A stretch of 5,844 bases of DNA from a virus (taxonomy: Duplodnaviria; Heunggongvirae; Uroviricota; Caudoviricetes): IMG/VR virus record IMGVR_UViG_2529292919_000006. One strand, given 5' to 3'. The notes below the pieces were generated by a model. It made no database searches. It was given only the letters and a program-made list of their open reading frames with translations, and was not told where the DNA came from. This document shows, one piece after another, positions 1 through 5,844 of this stretch (positions are counted from its first letter, which is position 1; each line of letters begins with the position of its first letter). A program made the position numbers and the translations under genes.

Positions 1-233
<233 letters not shown>

Positions 234-249
234 TCATCCGTCGTTGACA

Positions 250-318
250 ACGACCCGGCCAACCCTGAAAGAACTGGCAGCGAAGCTGTCCGGAGGAGTG
301 AATGGTTACAGTCGCTGA
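250..318 (+). pseudogene. Putative 3' remnant of the terminase large subunit gene (lambda A homolog), truncated upstream by the IS insertion
   Basis: Frame 1 is open from the IS tail to TGA at 316-318 and reads ...TTTRPTLKELAAKLSGGVNGYSR*. It overlaps the W start (302), matching the lambda arrangement where A ends overlapping W. Assignment rests on synteny and position, not a verified alignment. Confidence 0.4.
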
Positions 319-508
319 ACTGCAGGCGCTGCGTCAGGCGCGCCTTGATTTATTAACCGGTAAACGGGTGGTGTCTGTCCAGAAAGATGGTCGCAGAATT
401 GAATATACGGCGGCTTCTCTGGATGAGCTTAACCGGGCGATCAATGATGCGGAGTCGGTACTGGGGACAACCCGGCGTCGCCGTCGTCCGCTGGGAGTGA
501 GGTTATGA
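302..508 (+). CDS. W: Head-tail joining / head completion protein W (gpW family), 68 aa
   Basis: 68-aa ORF containing LTGKRVVSVQKDGRRIEYTAASLDEL and an RRRR-rich C-terminus, same length as and clearly similar to lambda gpW as I recall it. GGAGG at 292-296 precedes ATG 302. Stop TGA 506-508 overlaps the portal ATG (ATGA). Confidence 0.9.
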   Translation: MVTVAELQALRQARLDLLTGKRVVSVQKDGRRIEYTAASLDELNRAINDAESVLGTTRRRRRPLGVRL

Positions 509-2097
509 AACGAACGCCTGTCCTGATTGATGTGAACGGCGTTCCGCTTCGTGAGAGTCTCAGCTACAACGGGGGCGGTGCAGGATTTGGCGGGCAAATG
601 GCGGAGTGGTTGCCACCGGCGCAGAGTGCCGATGCGGCCCTGTTGCCCGCGTTGCGTCTGGGCAATGCCCGTGCAGATGATCTGGTGCGCAATAACGGGA
701 TAGCGGCCAATGCGGTGGCCCTGCATAAGGATCATATTGTCGGGCATATGTTTCTGATCAGCTACCGTCCGAACTGGCGCTGGCTGGGGATGCGGGAGAC
801 TGCAGCAAAAAGTTTTGTCGATGAGGTGGAGGCGGCCTGGTCGGAATACGCCGAAGGGATGTCTGGCGAGATCGACGTGGAAGGGAAACGCACGTTTACG
901 GAATTTATCCGTGAAGGTGTGGGCGTTCATGCGTTTAACGGCGAAATCTTTGTGCAGCCGGTCTGGGATACGGAGAGCACGCAACTGTTTCGTACGCGTT
1001 TTAAAGCCGTGAGTCCGAAACGGGTGGACACGCCAGGACACGGTATGGGGAACCGTTTTCTGCGGGCCGGTGTGGAGGTCGATCGATATGGTCGTGCCGT
1101 TGCGTACCATATCTGTGAGGATGATTTTCCGTTCTCCGGGAGTGGACGATGGGAACGGATCCCGCGTGAACTTCCCACCGGGCGTCCGGCCATGCTGCAT
1201 ATTTTCGAGCCGGTGGAGGACGGGCAGACCCGTGGGGCCAATCAGTTTTACAGCGTAATGGAACGGCTGAAGATGCTCGATTCCCTGCAGGCAACACAGC
1301 TTCAGTCGGCCATTGTGAAAGCCATGTATGCAGCGACGATTGAAAGTGACCTTGATACCGAAAAGGCCTTTGAATATATCGCCGGTGCGCCGCAGGGGCA
1401 GAAGGATAATCCGCTTATTAATATTCTGGATAAGTTCTCCACCTGGTATGACACGAATAGCGTGACGCTGGGTGGTGTCAAAATTCCGCACCTTTTCCCC
1501 GGTGATGATCTGAAACTTCAGACTGCGCAGGATTCAGACAATGGATTTTCGGCGCTTGAACAGGCGCTGCTGCGGTATATCGCCGCCGGTCTTGGCGTTT
1601 CCTACGAACAGTTGTCCCGTGATTACTCGAAGGTCAGTTATTCAAGTGCCAGGGCCTCTGCCAATGAGTCGTGGCGCTATTTTATGGGGCGGCGAAAATT
1701 TATTGCGGCCCGGCTGGCCACGCAGATGTTTTCCTGCTGGCTGGAAGAGGCACTTCTTCGGGGGATTATCCGTCCGCCACGGGCGCGTTTTGATTTTTAT
1801 CAGGCGCGATCAGCCTGGTCACGGGCAGAGTGGATTGGTGCCGGAAGAATGGCCATTGACGGGCTCAAGGAGGTTCAGGAATCGGTGATGCGCATTGAGG
1901 CCGGACTGAGCACGTATGAGAAAGAGCTGGCGCTGATGGGCGAGGATTATCAGGACATTTTCCGCCAGCAGGTCAGGGAATCTGCTGAGCGACAAAAAGC
2001 CGGACTCTCACGTCCGGTGTGGATAGCGCAGGCGTATGAGCAGCAGATAGCGGAGAGTCGCAGGCCGGAAGAGGAGACAACACCCCGTGAGACGTAA
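505..2097 (+). CDS. B: Portal protein (lambda gpB family), 530 aa
   Basis: 530-aa ORF with long conserved blocks shared with lambda gpB as I recall it (GNARADDLVRNNG, FEPVEDGQTRGAN.FYSVME, LQSAIVKAMYAATIES, LLRYIAAGLGVSYEQLSR, YSSARASANESW.YFMGRRKF, WIG.GRMAIDGLKEVQE, IEAGLSTYEKE). Lambda gpB is about 533 aa. ATG overlaps the W stop. Confidence 0.95.
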   Translation: MKRTPVLIDVNGVPLRESLSYNGGGAGFGGQMAEWLPPAQSADAALLPALRLGNARADDLVRNNGIAANAVALHKDHIVGHMFLISYRPNWRWLGMRETAAKSFVDEVEAAWSEYAEGMSGEIDVEGKRTFTEFIREGVGVHAFNGEIFVQPVWDTESTQLFRTRFKAVSPKRVDTPGHGMGNRFLRAGVEVDRYGRAVAYHICEDDFPFSGSGRWERIPRELPTGRPAMLHIFEPVEDGQTRGANQFYSVMERLKMLDSLQATQLQSAIVKAMYAATIESDLDTEKAFEYIAGAPQGQKDNPLINILDKFSTWYDTNSVTLGGVKIPHLFPGDDLKLQTAQDSDNGFSALEQALLRYIAAGLGVSYEQLSRDYSKVSYSSARASANESWRYFMGRRKFIAARLATQMFSCWLEEALLRGIIRPPRARFDFYQARSAWSRAEWIGAGRMAIDGLKEVQESVMRIEAGLSTYEKELALMGEDYQDIFRQQVRESAERQKAGLSRPVWIAQAYEQQIAESRRPEEETTPRET

Positions 2098-3593
2098 TCT
2101 TTCACACATTATTGCCGCAGCATTCAATGAACCGCTGCTTCTGGAGCCCGCCTATGCGCGGGTTTTCTTTTGCGCGCTCGGGCGCGAGATGGGGGCATCA
2201 AGTCTTTCGGTACCACAACAGCAGGTACAGTTTGATGCTCCCGGAATGCTGGCTGAAACGGACGAGTACATGGCCGGAGGTAAACGACCGGCCCGTGTTT
2301 ACCGGGTGGTGAACGGTATTGCGGTACTGCCGGTGACCGGCACGCTGGTGGCACCGGCTGGGGGGGATGCGGCCATTTTCCGGAATGACTGGCTATGACG
2401 GCATTGTCGCCTGTCTTCAGCAGGCAATGGCAGATAGCCAGGTGCGGGGCATACTGCTGGACATTGACAGTCCGGCGGGCAGGCCGCCGGCGCGTTTGAC
2501 TGCGCTGACATGATTTACCGCCTCCGTCAGCAGAAGCCGGTCTGGGCACTGTGCAATGACACGGCCTGTTCTGCAGCCATGCTGCTGGCGTCGGCCTGCT
2601 CCCGACGGCTGGTTACCCAGACATCCCGTATCGACTCCATTGGCGTGATGATGAGCCATGTCAGCTATGCCGGTCATCTGGCGCAGGCCGGTGTGGATAT
2701 CACGCTGATTTACTCAGGGGCGCACAAGGTGGATGGCAATCAGTTTGAAGCCTTACCGGCAGAGGTTCGCCAGGACATGCAGCAGCGCATTGATGCGGCG
2801 CGCCGGATGTTTGCCGAAAAAGTGGCCATGTTTACCGGTCTGTCTGTTGATGCCGTCACGGGAACAGAGGCCGCCGTTTTTGAAGGTCAGTCCGGCATTG
2901 ATGCCGGGCTGGCGGATGAATTAGTCAATGCGTCGGATGCCATCAGTGTGATGGCCACGGCGCTGAACAGTAATGTCAGAGGAGGCACTATGCCGCAATT
3001 AACTGCAACGGAAGCCGCCGCGCAGGAGAACCAGCGAGTGATGGGGATCCTGACATGCCAGGAAGCGAAAGGACGTGAACAGCTTGCCACGATGCTGGCA
3101 GGACAACAGGGCATGAGCGTTGAACAGGCCCGGGCGATTCTGGCCGCGGCGGCACCGCAGCAGCCGGTGGCATCCACGCAGAGTGAAGCCGATCGCATTA
3201 TGGCGTGTGAAGAAGCGAACGGTCGTGAACAACTGGCGGCAACGCTGGCGGCGATGCCGGAGATGACGGTGGAAAAAGCCCGCCCGATCCTGGCTGCTTC
3301 ACCGCAGGCGGATGCCGGACCCTCACTCCGTGATCAGATCATGGCGACTGGATGAGGCAAAAGGGGCTGAGGCGCAGGCTGAACAGCTGGCTGCCTGCCC
3401 GGGAATGACTGTGGAGAGCGCCCGGGCTGTGCTGGCTGCGGGATCAGGTAAGGCAGAACCGGTCTCTGCATCCACAACCGCCCTGTTTGAACGCATCATG
3501 GCGAACCATTCACCGGCAGCGGTACAGGGTGGCGTGCCACAGACGTCAGCAGACGGTGATGCGGACGTGGAAATGCTCATGGCCATGCCATGA
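2087..3593 (+). pseudogene. C: Head maturation protease / scaffold gene (lambda C-Nu3 homolog, S49-like serine protease N-domain plus Nu3-like scaffold C-domain), interrupted by three frameshifts
   Basis: Homologous protein sequence is continuous only if the frame changes three times. Segment 1 is 2087-~2366 in frame 2 (GTG start, NEPLLLEPAYARVFFCAL ... NGIAVLPVTGTLVAPAGG). Segment 2 is ~2367-2474 in frame 3 (MRPFSGMTGYDGIVACLQQAMADSQVRGILLDIDSP). Segment 3 is 2474-~3349 in frame 2 (GGQAAGAFDCADMIYRLRQQKPVWAL ... GIDAGLADELVN ... DQIMA). Segment 4 is ~3351-3593 in frame 3 (DEAKGAEAQAEQLAACPGMTVESARAVLAA ... EMLMAMP*). The annotated frame stops at 2396-2398 and 3353-3355. Shift 1 is in a G7 run at 2360-2366, shift 2 at 2472-2476, shift 3 at 3347-3350. 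Confidence 0.8.
3035..3503 (+). repeat. Three tandem, diverged copies of a ~47-53 aa scaffold (Nu3-like) motif; lambda gpC/Nu3 has one copy as I recall it
   Basis: Units RVMGILTCQEAKGREQLATMLAGQQGMSVEQARAILAAAAPQ...ADRIMA; CEEANGREQLAATLAAMPEMTVEKARPILAASPQ...RDQIMA; DEAKGAEAQAEQLAACPGMTVESARAVLAAGSGK...FERIMA. Periods are 159, 141 and 157 nt between the conserved IM(A/G) anchors. Copies are diverged at nucleotide level. Confidence 0.7.
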
Positions 3594-3629
3594 AGCCAGT
3601 GCTGACCATCAACAGGAGGTTTTTACAAT

Positions 3630-3977
3630 ATGGTGACGAAAACTATCACTGAACAGCGTGCGGAAGTACGTATTTTTGCCGGTAATGATCCGGCTCATAC
3701 CGCCACAGGCAGCAGCGGGATTTCCTCGGCAACACCGGCACTGACGCCACTGATGCTGGATGAGGCCACCGGGAAACTGGTGGTCTGGGACGGACAAAAA
3801 GCCGGTAGTGCAGTTGGCATACTGGTACTGCCGCTTGAAGGCACAGAGACGGCGCTGACCTATTACAAGTCGGGGACCTTTGCGACGGAGGCAATCCGCT
3901 GGCCTGAAAGTGTGGATGAACACAAAAAGGCCAACGCCTTTGCCGGCAGTGCCCTGAGTCACGCGGCGCTGCCGTAA
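3630..3977 (+). CDS. D: Head decoration protein (lambda gpD family), 115 aa
   Basis: Motifs DPAHTAT, TPLMLD, KLVVWDG, AVGIL, YKSGTF and AFAG match lambda gpD (110 aa) as I recall it. AGGAGG at 3614-3619 sits 10 nt upstream of ATG 3630. Confidence 0.9.
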   Translation: MVTKTITEQRAEVRIFAGNDPAHTATGSSGISSATPALTPLMLDEATGKLVVWDGQKAGSAVGILVLPLEGTETALTYYKSGTFATEAIRWPESVDEHKKANAFAGSALSHAALP

Positions 3978-3984
3978 CACGTTA

Positions 3985-4006
3985 TCAGGCCACCGCGGTG
4001 GCCTGA
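3985..4006. other. Perfect 22-bp GC-rich palindrome TCAGGCCACCGCGGTGGCCTGA in the D-E intergenic region; possible RNA stem-loop or protein binding site
   Basis: The sequence is exactly self-complementary. It lies 8 nt after the D stop (3975-3977) and 29 nt before the E start. It is followed by ACTGATTTCTGAA, which is only a weak U-tract. Confidence 0.5.
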
Positions 4007-4034
4007 CTGATTTCTGAATGAAAGGAACTGATTT

Positions 4035-5063
4035 ATGGGATTGTTTACGACCCGCCAGTTACTCGGTTATACCGAACAAAAAGTGAAATTTCGTGCGCTG
4101 TTTCTGGAGCTGTTTTTCCGCCGTACGGTGAATTTCCATACCGAAGAGGTGATGCTGGACAAGATTACCGGAAAAACGCCGGTGGCGGCCTATGTTTCCC
4201 CGGTTGTTGAAGGAAAAGTGCTGCGTCATCGTGGTGGTGAAACCCGCGTGTTACGTCCGGGCTACGTCAAGCCGAAACACGAATTTAATTACCAGCAGGC
4301 GGTTGAGCGTCTTCCCGGTGAAGATCCGGCTCAGCTGAACGACCCGGCCTACCGTCGTCTGCGTATCATCACTGATAACCTCAAACAGGAAGAGCACGCC
4401 ATTGTCCAGGTGGAAGAAATGCAGGCGGTGAATGCCGTGCTGTATGGCAAATACACGATGGAAGGAGACCAGTTCGAGAAAATTGAGGTCGATTTTGGCA
4501 GGTCGACGAAGAATAACATCACTCAGGGTAGTGGTAAGGAGTGGTCAAAACAGGATCGTGACACGTTCGATCCTACACATGATCTTGACCTCTACTGCGA
4601 CCAGGCCAGCGGTCTTGTGAATATTGCCATTATGGACGGTACCGTCTGGCGTCTGCTGAATGGCTTTAAATTGTTCCGCGAAAAACTGGATACCCGTCGC
4701 GGCTCTAATTCGCAACTCGAAACAGCGGTGAAAGACCTGGGCGCGGTGGTGTCCTTCAAAGGGTATTACGGCGATCTGGCCATTGTGGTGGCAAAAACGT
4801 CTTATGTGGCAGAGGACGGTACCGAAAAACGTTATCTGCCTGAGGGCTCGCTGGTCCTGGGGAATACGGCAGCAGAGGGCATTCGTTGCTATGGTGCCAT
4901 TCAGGATGCGCAGGCGTTGTCCGAAGGTGTGGTGGCCTCTTCCCGTTATCCGAAACACTGGCTGACGGTAGGGGATCCCGCCCGTGAATTTACCATGACG
5001 CAGTCCGCGCCGCTGATGGTGTTGCCGGACCCGGATGAGTTTGTGGTGGTACAGGTGAAATAA
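4035..5063 (+). CDS. E: Major capsid protein (lambda gpE family), 342 aa
   Basis: 342-aa ORF sharing long blocks with lambda gpE (341 aa) as I recall it: KFRALFLELFFRR, YVSPVVEGKVLRHRGGET, PGYVKPKHE, DPAYRRLRII, VEEMQAV.AVLYGKYTMEG, KLDTRRGSNS.LETAVKDLG, GDPAREFTMTQSAPLM. AAGGA at 4022-4026 precedes ATG 4035. Confidence 0.95.
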   Translation: MGLFTTRQLLGYTEQKVKFRALFLELFFRRTVNFHTEEVMLDKITGKTPVAAYVSPVVEGKVLRHRGGETRVLRPGYVKPKHEFNYQQAVERLPGEDPAQLNDPAYRRLRIITDNLKQEEHAIVQVEEMQAVNAVLYGKYTMEGDQFEKIEVDFGRSTKNNITQGSGKEWSKQDRDTFDPTHDLDLYCDQASGLVNIAIMDGTVWRLLNGFKLFREKLDTRRGSNSQLETAVKDLGAVVSFKGYYGDLAIVVAKTSYVAEDGTEKRYLPEGSLVLGNTAAEGIRCYGAIQDAQALSEGVVASSRYPKHWLTVGDPAREFTMTQSAPLMVLPDPDEFVVVQVK

Positions 5064-5070
5064 TCCGTGA

Positions 5071-5100
5071 GCGGGGGCGAAATGCCCCCGTGTCTTTTTT
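5071..5100 (+). terminator. Putative rho-independent terminator / attenuator immediately downstream of the major capsid gene
   Basis: Stem CGGGGGC (5072-5078) / GCCCCCG (5084-5090) with GAAAT loop, then TGTC and T6 (5095-5100). The 4-nt spacer before the T-run makes it less than canonical. Confidence 0.5.
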
Positions 5101-5114
5101 CACAGGGGGATGAT

Positions 5115-5489
5115 ATGGCAACGAAAGAGCAAAATCTGAAACGGCTTGATGAACTGGCCCTGATTCTGGGGCGTGAGCCGGATATATCCGGGAGTGCCGC
5201 AGAGATAGCGCAGCGGGTGGCAGAATGGGAAGAGGAAATGCAGTCATCCGGCGATGATGTACAGGTTATGAATATGGATATCCGGGAGAGGGAAAACGCG
5301 GCTCATGATGTTCGTGAGGAAACATCCGGCGCGTTAACGCGCATCAGAGTTCTGACCTGCCTCCATCTCTGTGGCGTTGATGGTGAAACGGGGGAATCCG
5401 TTGAGCTTGCGGATGTTGGTCGGGTGATTCTGATTATGTCCTCAGATGCAAAAACACACGTTGATGGTGGAATGGCTGTTTATGCGTGA
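5115..5489 (+). CDS. FI: DNA packaging protein FI-like, 124 aa
   Basis: Position between E and FII as in lambda. Acidic protein with weak N-terminal resemblance to lambda gpFI (GREPDISGSAAEIAQRVAEWEEEM versus the lambda region around LTGTKEELALRVAELKEEL, from memory). ATG 5115 is preceded by AGGGGGA (5104-5110). The GTG at 5067 offered by the ORF track lies inside the terminator hairpin and is less likely. Stop TGA 5487-5489 overlaps the FII start. Confidence 0.7.
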   Translation: MATKEQNLKRLDELALILGREPDISGSAAEIAQRVAEWEEEMQSSGDDVQVMNMDIRERENAAHDVREETSGALTRIRVLTCLHLCGVDGETGESVELADVGRVILIMSSDAKTHVDGGMAVYA

Positions 5490-5835
5490 TTTTCAGAATG
5501 CCTTTGATGCCGCCCTTGCCGGGGTGGACAGTACGATTGTTGAAGTGATGGGCATCAGTGCGCAGTTCACCTCGGGGGCACAGTGTGGCAGCGAAGTTCA
5601 GGGGGTTTTTGACGATCCGGAGTCGCTGGGGTTTGCCGGTAGCGGGGTCCGTATTGAAGGAAGCTGCCCGTCATTATTTGTACGGACGGATACGGTTCGT
5701 GCTGTGCGGCGTGGTGACACGCTGACCATTAATGGTGAGACATTCTGGGTGGATCGTGTTTCTCCGGATGACGGGGGCAGTTGTTATCTCTGGCTCAACC
5801 GTGGGCAACCACCGGCAGTTAACCGGCGACGATAA
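5482..5835 (+). CDS. FII: Head-tail connector / head completion protein FII (gpFII family), 117 aa
   Basis: From ATG 5482 the protein is MRDFQNAFDAALAG...GVFDDPES...GSGVRIEGSCPSLFVRTDTVRAVRRGDTLTINGETFWVDRVSPDDGGSCYLWLNRGQPPAVNRRR, near-identical in its C-terminal half to lambda gpFII as I recall it and the same length (117 aa). The upstream ATG at 5446 in the ORF track would add 12 residues without homology. ATGCGTGA start/stop overlap with FI. Confidence 0.9.
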   Translation: MRDFQNAFDAALAGVDSTIVEVMGISAQFTSGAQCGSEVQGVFDDPESLGFAGSGVRIEGSCPSLFVRTDTVRAVRRGDTLTINGETFWVDRVSPDDGGSCYLWLNRGQPPAVNRRR

Positions 5836-5844
5836 ACGCAGGGT

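Follow-up and report, generated by a model that had tools for sequence, protein, structure and literature searches.

The closest described counterparts of the gene analysed here are genes 5 and 6 of phage 21 (M81255, OL657228), the equivalents of lambda C and Nu3, to which it shows 98% DNA identity over the whole gene. Lambda Nu3 is a scaffold protein that interacts with C, B, and E (PMC3224144). Translation of the lambda scaffold begins at an internal start within the protease gene, in the same frame, and the two products have a common C-terminus; the same nested arrangement is predicted for the copy in E. coli DEC1D. At 200 aa, and with a triple Tri repeat, the scaffold part of the phage 21 type is longer than that of lambda.

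The window, i.e., the whole stretch of DNA that was analysed, is the entire 5,844-bp contig AIEY01000009.1 of the draft assembly GCA_000249115.2 (E. coli DEC1D, 2012). It carries a phage-21/lambda-type head operon in the order W, portal B, C/Nu3, D, E, FI, FII, which is also the order in phage 21 (W, portal, 5/6, shp (D), major capsid, FI, FII). Common to phage 21 and the window are furthermore the GTG start of the long product, the internal ATG and ribosome binding site (RBS) of the scaffold, and three Tri boxes. Whereas the phage 21 gene is one open frame of 501 codons, the frame of the window copy is broken by three 1-nt indels, and two missense changes in it are private. The terminase gene of the window, unlike that of phage 21, is cut by an insertion sequence (IS).

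The nearest relatives were found in prophages of EPEC E2348/69 (WP_001254036.1) and O111:H2 12A (WP_001254032.1), whose products are recorded as S49 family peptidases. Identity to these two prophages was 99.6–99.7% over the gene and 99.4% over 250–5844 (99.7% to O111:H2 12A over the aligned region 2080–3640). In both, the gene is intact and the terminase gene uninterrupted, and after repair of the indels the window protein differs from theirs only by I/V122, G183D, and K495E. The feature under study, an extra G at 3346, is almost certainly a non-programmed lesion in a single gene, be it real or artefactual. It is nothing new in kind: the gene is well known, and the break is either a commonplace frameshift of the pseudogene type or an artefact of sequencing.

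Head operon and interrupted terminase gene

The left end of the window is formed by the 3′ end of an IS21-like, IS100kyp-family element (1–249, plus strand), consisting of the istB tail (1–183) followed by the right end of the IS. Only this 3′ end is present, and the far side of the element lies beyond the contig. Homology to the relative prophages begins at base 250, where the remnant of the terminase large-subunit gene starts (250–318; the last 69 nt of the gene, overlapping the start of gpW); the end of gene A, at position 739 of the homologous locus of one relative (L001), corresponds to window position 318. The element thus entered the terminase large-subunit gene at a point 69 nt short of its end, and the junction reads CATCCGTCGTTGACA directly followed by ACGACCCGGCC. 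Exact-pattern scans for this junction gave no match in any other collection scanned. With a packaging gene interrupted by a mobile element, the locus is an IS-inactivated defective lambdoid prophage.

Downstream of the terminase remnant follow gpW (302–508; Pfam gpW), portal B (505–2097; Pfam Phage_portal_2), the broken C/Nu3-type gene (2087–3593, plus strand), which is the equivalent of phage 21 gene 5 and encodes an S49 prohead protease fused to the scaffold, the decoration protein D (3630–3977; Pfam HDPD), the major capsid protein E (4035–5063; Pfam Phage_cap_E), FI (5115–5489; Pfam Packaging_FI), and FII (5482–5835; Pfam Phage_attach). The genes B, D, E, FI, and FII are all intact and of full length on the contig. 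The contig stops 9 nt past the FII stop (5836–5844), at the border with the tail genes, and at its other end inside the IS. Repeats seem to have broken the assembly at both ends, as would be expected for strains with several lambdoid prophages; the homologous locus is present in a median of 2 copies per genome in the relatives.

The broken C/Nu3-type gene and its nested scaffold

Alignment of 2080–3640 with intact homologs placed one extra base, and exactly one, at 3346 (plus strand), where ATGGCACTGG of all relatives is replaced by ATGGCGACTGG in the window (ATGGC[G]ACTGG). At the site itself, the window reads ATGGC-G-ACTGGATGAGG and both E. coli O111:H2 12A and phage 21 read ATGGC-ACTGGATGAGG; G3346 is the most economical placement of the inserted base. 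Frame 2 consequently reads ATG (3341) GCG ACT GGA TGA, and the open reading frame 2510–3355 terminates as …DQIMATG at a premature TGA made by the insertion (3353–3355, plus strand), whereas the intact protein continues in a single frame as …DQIMALDEAKG…. The last 81 codons are shifted into frame 3, which stays open from 3312 up to its stop codon (3591–3593) and ends …DVEMLMAMP; the displaced C-terminal part (3356–3593, plus strand) comprises the rest of Tri repeat 3 and the C-terminal tail. Against the phrog_53 profile, the two fragments adjoin without a gap, the upstream one reaching position 502 and the downstream one spanning 503–583.

These results agree with the original prediction, made from the letters of the window alone, in its description of the break: a frame 2 ending DQIMATG at 3353–3355 was read directly from the sequence, and the continuation of the C-terminus (EMLMAMP, ending at 3593) in frame 3 was found both in the sequence and in the list of open reading frames. 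The four nucleotides ACTG, which had been described as standing in place of one codon, are the same event as the extra G, placed one base to the right. The interpretation as a +1 frameshift was upheld by the intact homologs, which run through the site as a single 501-aa open reading frame, and the two further frameshifts that had been proposed upstream were recovered in the alignment (an extra G at about 2350 and a missing G at about 2473).

The first of these is an extra G at 2350 (plus strand; GGTG[G]CACC, GGTGGCAC as compared with GGTGCAC), after which frame 2 runs into a stop at 2396–2398. The second is a missing G at 2473–2474 (plus strand; from the alignment, CCGGCGGG as compared with CCGGGCGGG). 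Mutual compensation of the two was considered and rejected, as the stop at 2396–2398 intervenes. The protease product from GTG 2087 therefore stops at 2396–2398 after 103 residues.

Repair of all three indels yielded an open reading frame of 501 codons. Its product matched Pfam PF01343 (Peptidase_S49) at 1.8e-34, a domain that was also matched on the 258-aa fragment, and aligned end to end with phrog_53 “head maturation protease” (residues 2–501 to profile positions 5–583, 2.3e-225). The S49 domain resembles the SppA structures 3RST and 4KWB at 1e-15, and the gene lies between the portal and the decoration/major capsid genes, as the family demands. All defining features of the lambda C/Nu3-type (phage 21 gp5/gp6) family are hence present except an uninterrupted reading frame, and as deposited, this family member is either a pseudogene or mis-sequenced.

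The scaffold start was located at ATG 2990 in frame 2, with the Shine-Dalgarno sequence GGAGG at 2981–2985; both match the annotation of gene 6 in M81255 and OL657228. This start lies downstream of frameshifts 1 and 2 and upstream of frameshift 3. Hence, the first two indels destroy the protease only, and the extra G at 3346 is the only one of the three that truncates the scaffold. The resulting Nu3-type open reading frame, the equivalent of phage 21 gene 6, covers 2990–3355 (plus strand), and its predicted product consists of 119 native residues plus Thr-Gly (121 aa) as compared with 200 native residues. As judged from the sequence, scaffold translation could still start at ATG 2990.

The three Tri boxes were mapped onto the window from the annotation of the phage 21 record M81255 and lie at 3057–3160 (Tri1), 3197–3307 (Tri2), and 3338–3452 (Tri3), all on the plus strand; the three protein repeats show 43–55% identity to the first repeat. 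The insertion occurred 8 nt after the start of Tri3, behind Ile-Met-Ala of the third repeat. This non-programmed insertion of one G, inside a continuous C/Nu3-type gene, ends frame 2 at 3353–3355 and deprives the S49 prohead protease as well as the nested scaffold from ATG 2990 of their last 81 residues, i.e., most of Tri repeat 3 and the C-terminal tail. The truncated products would presumably not function. Misassembly between the Tri repeats was rejected as the source of the extra G, since the repeats are too diverged and no long DNA repeat was found.

With respect to the scaffold, the original prediction stood in part. That its C-terminus is lost through the third frameshift is borne out (119 of 200 native residues are kept), and ATG 3312 indeed has no Shine-Dalgarno sequence and, in addition, no counterpart in the annotated homologs. 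A Nu3-type internal start exists in the C frame, as had been expected, with an RBS at ATG 2990; it sits, however, in frame 2 and upstream of the lesion rather than in frame 3. Likewise, the repeats on either side of the break are real, three in number, but the insertion is 8 nt inside Tri3 and not at the junction of repeats 2 and 3, which are separated by a spacer of 30 nt.

Occurrence in other sequences and alternatives to a lesion

With a 61-mer that has the extra G at 3346 in its middle, matches were obtained at 1,954 places in 1,310 complete E. coli genomes, and none of these genomes carried the insertion (best identity 60/61 in each). The extra G was a singleton against 126 aligned relatives. 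Exact-pattern scans with an insertion-bearing 33-mer gave no match in GTDB representative genomes, JGI metagenomes, or IMG/VR, while the intact 32-mer across the site was present in at least 120 IMG/VR contigs. The same held for the companion changes: the extra G at 2350 was found in none of the 467 genomes matching the respective 61-mer, the missing G at 2473 in none of 1,717 matching genomes, and the changes Gly183Asp (2634) and Lys495Glu (3570) in none of the complete E. coli genomes that have the respective site. Overall, the five gene-C changes were met with in no other sequence among the complete E. coli genomes, IMG/VR, GTDB representatives, and JGI metagenomes searched. The pattern scans for Lys495Glu and for the IS/terminase junction were negative as well and thus yielded no sister copy by which a real change could be told from an error. 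At the protein level, no exact record was retrieved for the 281-aa and 93-aa products around the break, and the gene-caller products of 258 aa and 87 aa are recorded solely on this contig. The 90% clusters of the fragments contained no other gene broken alike; the cluster members of similar length were contig-end partials in the intact frame (…DQIMALDEAKG…).

Two readings would make the break at 3355 something other than a lesion. In the one, 3355 is a true gene boundary and the C-terminal part is encoded by a separate, overlapping gene starting at 3312 or 3330, and the automatic gene caller did annotate two genes here (2579–3355 and 3330–3593). All annotated intact homologs, however, have a single 501-codon open reading frame over the site, the two fragments adjoin at the consecutive phrog_53 positions 502/503, and the two-gene arrangement was absent from all complete E. 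coli genomes with this site. The original prediction had itself named a gene end at 3355 with a separate gene from about 3312 as the finding that would speak against a frameshift; it was looked for in the intact homologs and was absent from them. Neither 3312 nor 3330 is preceded by a Shine-Dalgarno sequence, and GTG 3330, too, had no counterpart in any annotated homolog; an independent C-terminal product from either start was therefore rejected. That the gene truly ends at 3355 is thus extremely improbable. In the other reading, to which we give next to no credence, recoding (a programmed +1 ribosomal frameshift or a signal of another type) would determine how much short scaffold is made relative to the long form. 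The stop codon that coincides with the shift (GGA UGA G) is indeed reminiscent of some +1 recoding sites, but the context ACU GGA UGA GGC would require re-pairing from GGA to GAU, which is not slippery, and inspection revealed no Shine-Dalgarno-like stimulator 3–6 nt upstream. Programmed sites are, moreover, conserved among relatives, whereas the insertion was present in no other sequence searched and the long product of the relatives is encoded without any shift of frame. On these sequence comparisons, both a gene boundary and programmed frameshifting are regarded as excluded. Re-initiation at the ATGA overlap (3352–3355) was also considered and rejected, as it would lead into frame 1 and yield a peptide of 18 aa.

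A further idea concerns a role for the shortened scaffold. If the insertion is real, the 121-aa fragment, which keeps Tri repeats 1 and 2 and lacks the C-terminal part, might be expressed by the crippled prophage from the intact RBS and ATG 2990 and act as a dominant-negative scaffold against superinfecting phages of the phage 21/lambda type; it would then poison procapsid assembly and represent a domesticated exclusion factor. The one observation from which this idea derives is the intact start site at 2990, and we consider it very unlikely.

Draft consensus error or mutation

For all differences private to the contig, window positions 250–5844 were compared with 46–126 relatives per position (complete genomes and IMG/VR loci). 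Six were found in total: the extra G at 2350, the missing G at 2473, G>A at 2634, the extra G at 3346, A>G at 3570, and A>G at 4163. The change at 2634 (plus strand) is a transition in gene C causing Gly183Asp, within the conserved G-S-[IL]-G-V motif of the S49 domain, and B. subtilis SppA (3RST) has a Gly at the position aligned to Gly183. The transition at 3570 (plus strand) causes Lys495Glu in gene C, 6 residues before the C-terminus, and that at 4163 is silent, in gene E, and outside the gene-C cluster. Five of the six (3 indels, 2 missense changes) fall within 1.22 kb of gene C, which accounts for 27% of the compared length (binomial p ~0.007, post hoc, as the test was chosen after the data had been seen), and the gene-C changes coincide with the two GC peaks of the window (63–64% GC). 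Indels and substitutions are equal in number (3:3); all indels involve a G adjoining G or C, all substitutions are transitions, and two of the three indels, including that at 3346, lie outside homopolymer runs of at least 3. At all other sites where the window departs from its nearest relatives, the variant is a polymorphism that other prophages have as well.

Spontaneous mutation in E. coli produces about one indel per ten substitutions, whereas a spectrum rich in indels is what errors in a draft consensus usually give. Errors of the 454 type concentrate in homopolymer runs, and an Illumina consensus rarely carries indels. We infer that the extra G at 3346 and the other four private changes of gene C are slightly likelier to be consensus errors of the draft DEC1D assembly of 2012 than to be real. 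Such an origin is favoured by the share of 1-nt indels, which make up half of the private changes and give an indel/substitution ratio (3:3) unusually high for natural mutation. The clustering in gene C and at the GC peaks points to a local quality problem, unlike the uniform neutral decay that a dead prophage would show, and no gene among B, D, E, FI, and FII is broken, though all should be equally free to decay. None of the gene-C changes was found in any second assembly.

The competing reading, a real possibility if not quite the one we would expect, is that packaging was lost when the IS100kyp-family element entered the terminase gene and that the head genes then drifted, with C/Nu3 acquiring three frameshifts and two missense changes. 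The strain would in this case make at most a 103-aa N-terminal protease stub and the 121-aa scaffold fragment, both functionless. The IS lies in the terminase gene on the same contig, so decay of the head genes should be unconstrained, which counts against an error. Gly183Asp strikes a motif conserved out to SppA, as relaxed selection predicts, and the private substitutions are all transitions, one of them outside gene C. That one, the silent change at 4163 in gene E, seems to be a real mutation, and the lineage thus does have private changes of its own. The position of two of the three indels outside homopolymer runs of at least 3 argues against a 454-type error, the rarity of indels in an Illumina consensus likewise counts against an error, and frameshifted head genes are known in finished genomes too, e.g., the portal gene of strain C7. 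What weighs against decay is what also favours the consensus-error origin: five of the six private changes are in one gene although its neighbours, all full length, should be equally neutral, the share of indels is unusually high, and no second assembly has any of the changes.

For the annotation, it follows in either case that the four small coding sequences EHU32223, EHU32224, EHU32225, and EHU32228 all derive from one C/Nu3-type gene and are best taken together, as one pseudogene or as a sequencing artefact. More generally, frameshifts that are private to one short draft contig need a check of the reads before they are read biologically. If the changes are real, they would add just one further decayed head gene to an IS-disabled prophage; the overall importance is small.

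Some minor observations were made along the operon. In the portal gene (475–1884), about 20 mostly synonymous changes were counted relative to E2348/69 and O111:H2 12A, and those missing from the first five references are synonymous. These changes are common to 25–32 IMG/VR prophage contigs, which indicates a recombination mosaic over 475–1884 rather than new mutations. The annotation pipeline flagged the portal gene as “frameshifted” in the corresponding prophage of E. coli strain C7 (NZ_CP010240.1; locus L006, 556–2148), a finished genome, which provides an independent case of a damaged head gene among prophages of this type. Lastly, two strong terminator-like hairpins are located inside the late operon, one just after the decoration gene (3985–4015; TCAGGCCACC-GCGG-TGGCCTGA) and one just after the major capsid gene (5071–5100; GCGGGGGC-GAAAT-GCCCCCGT, followed by a T run).
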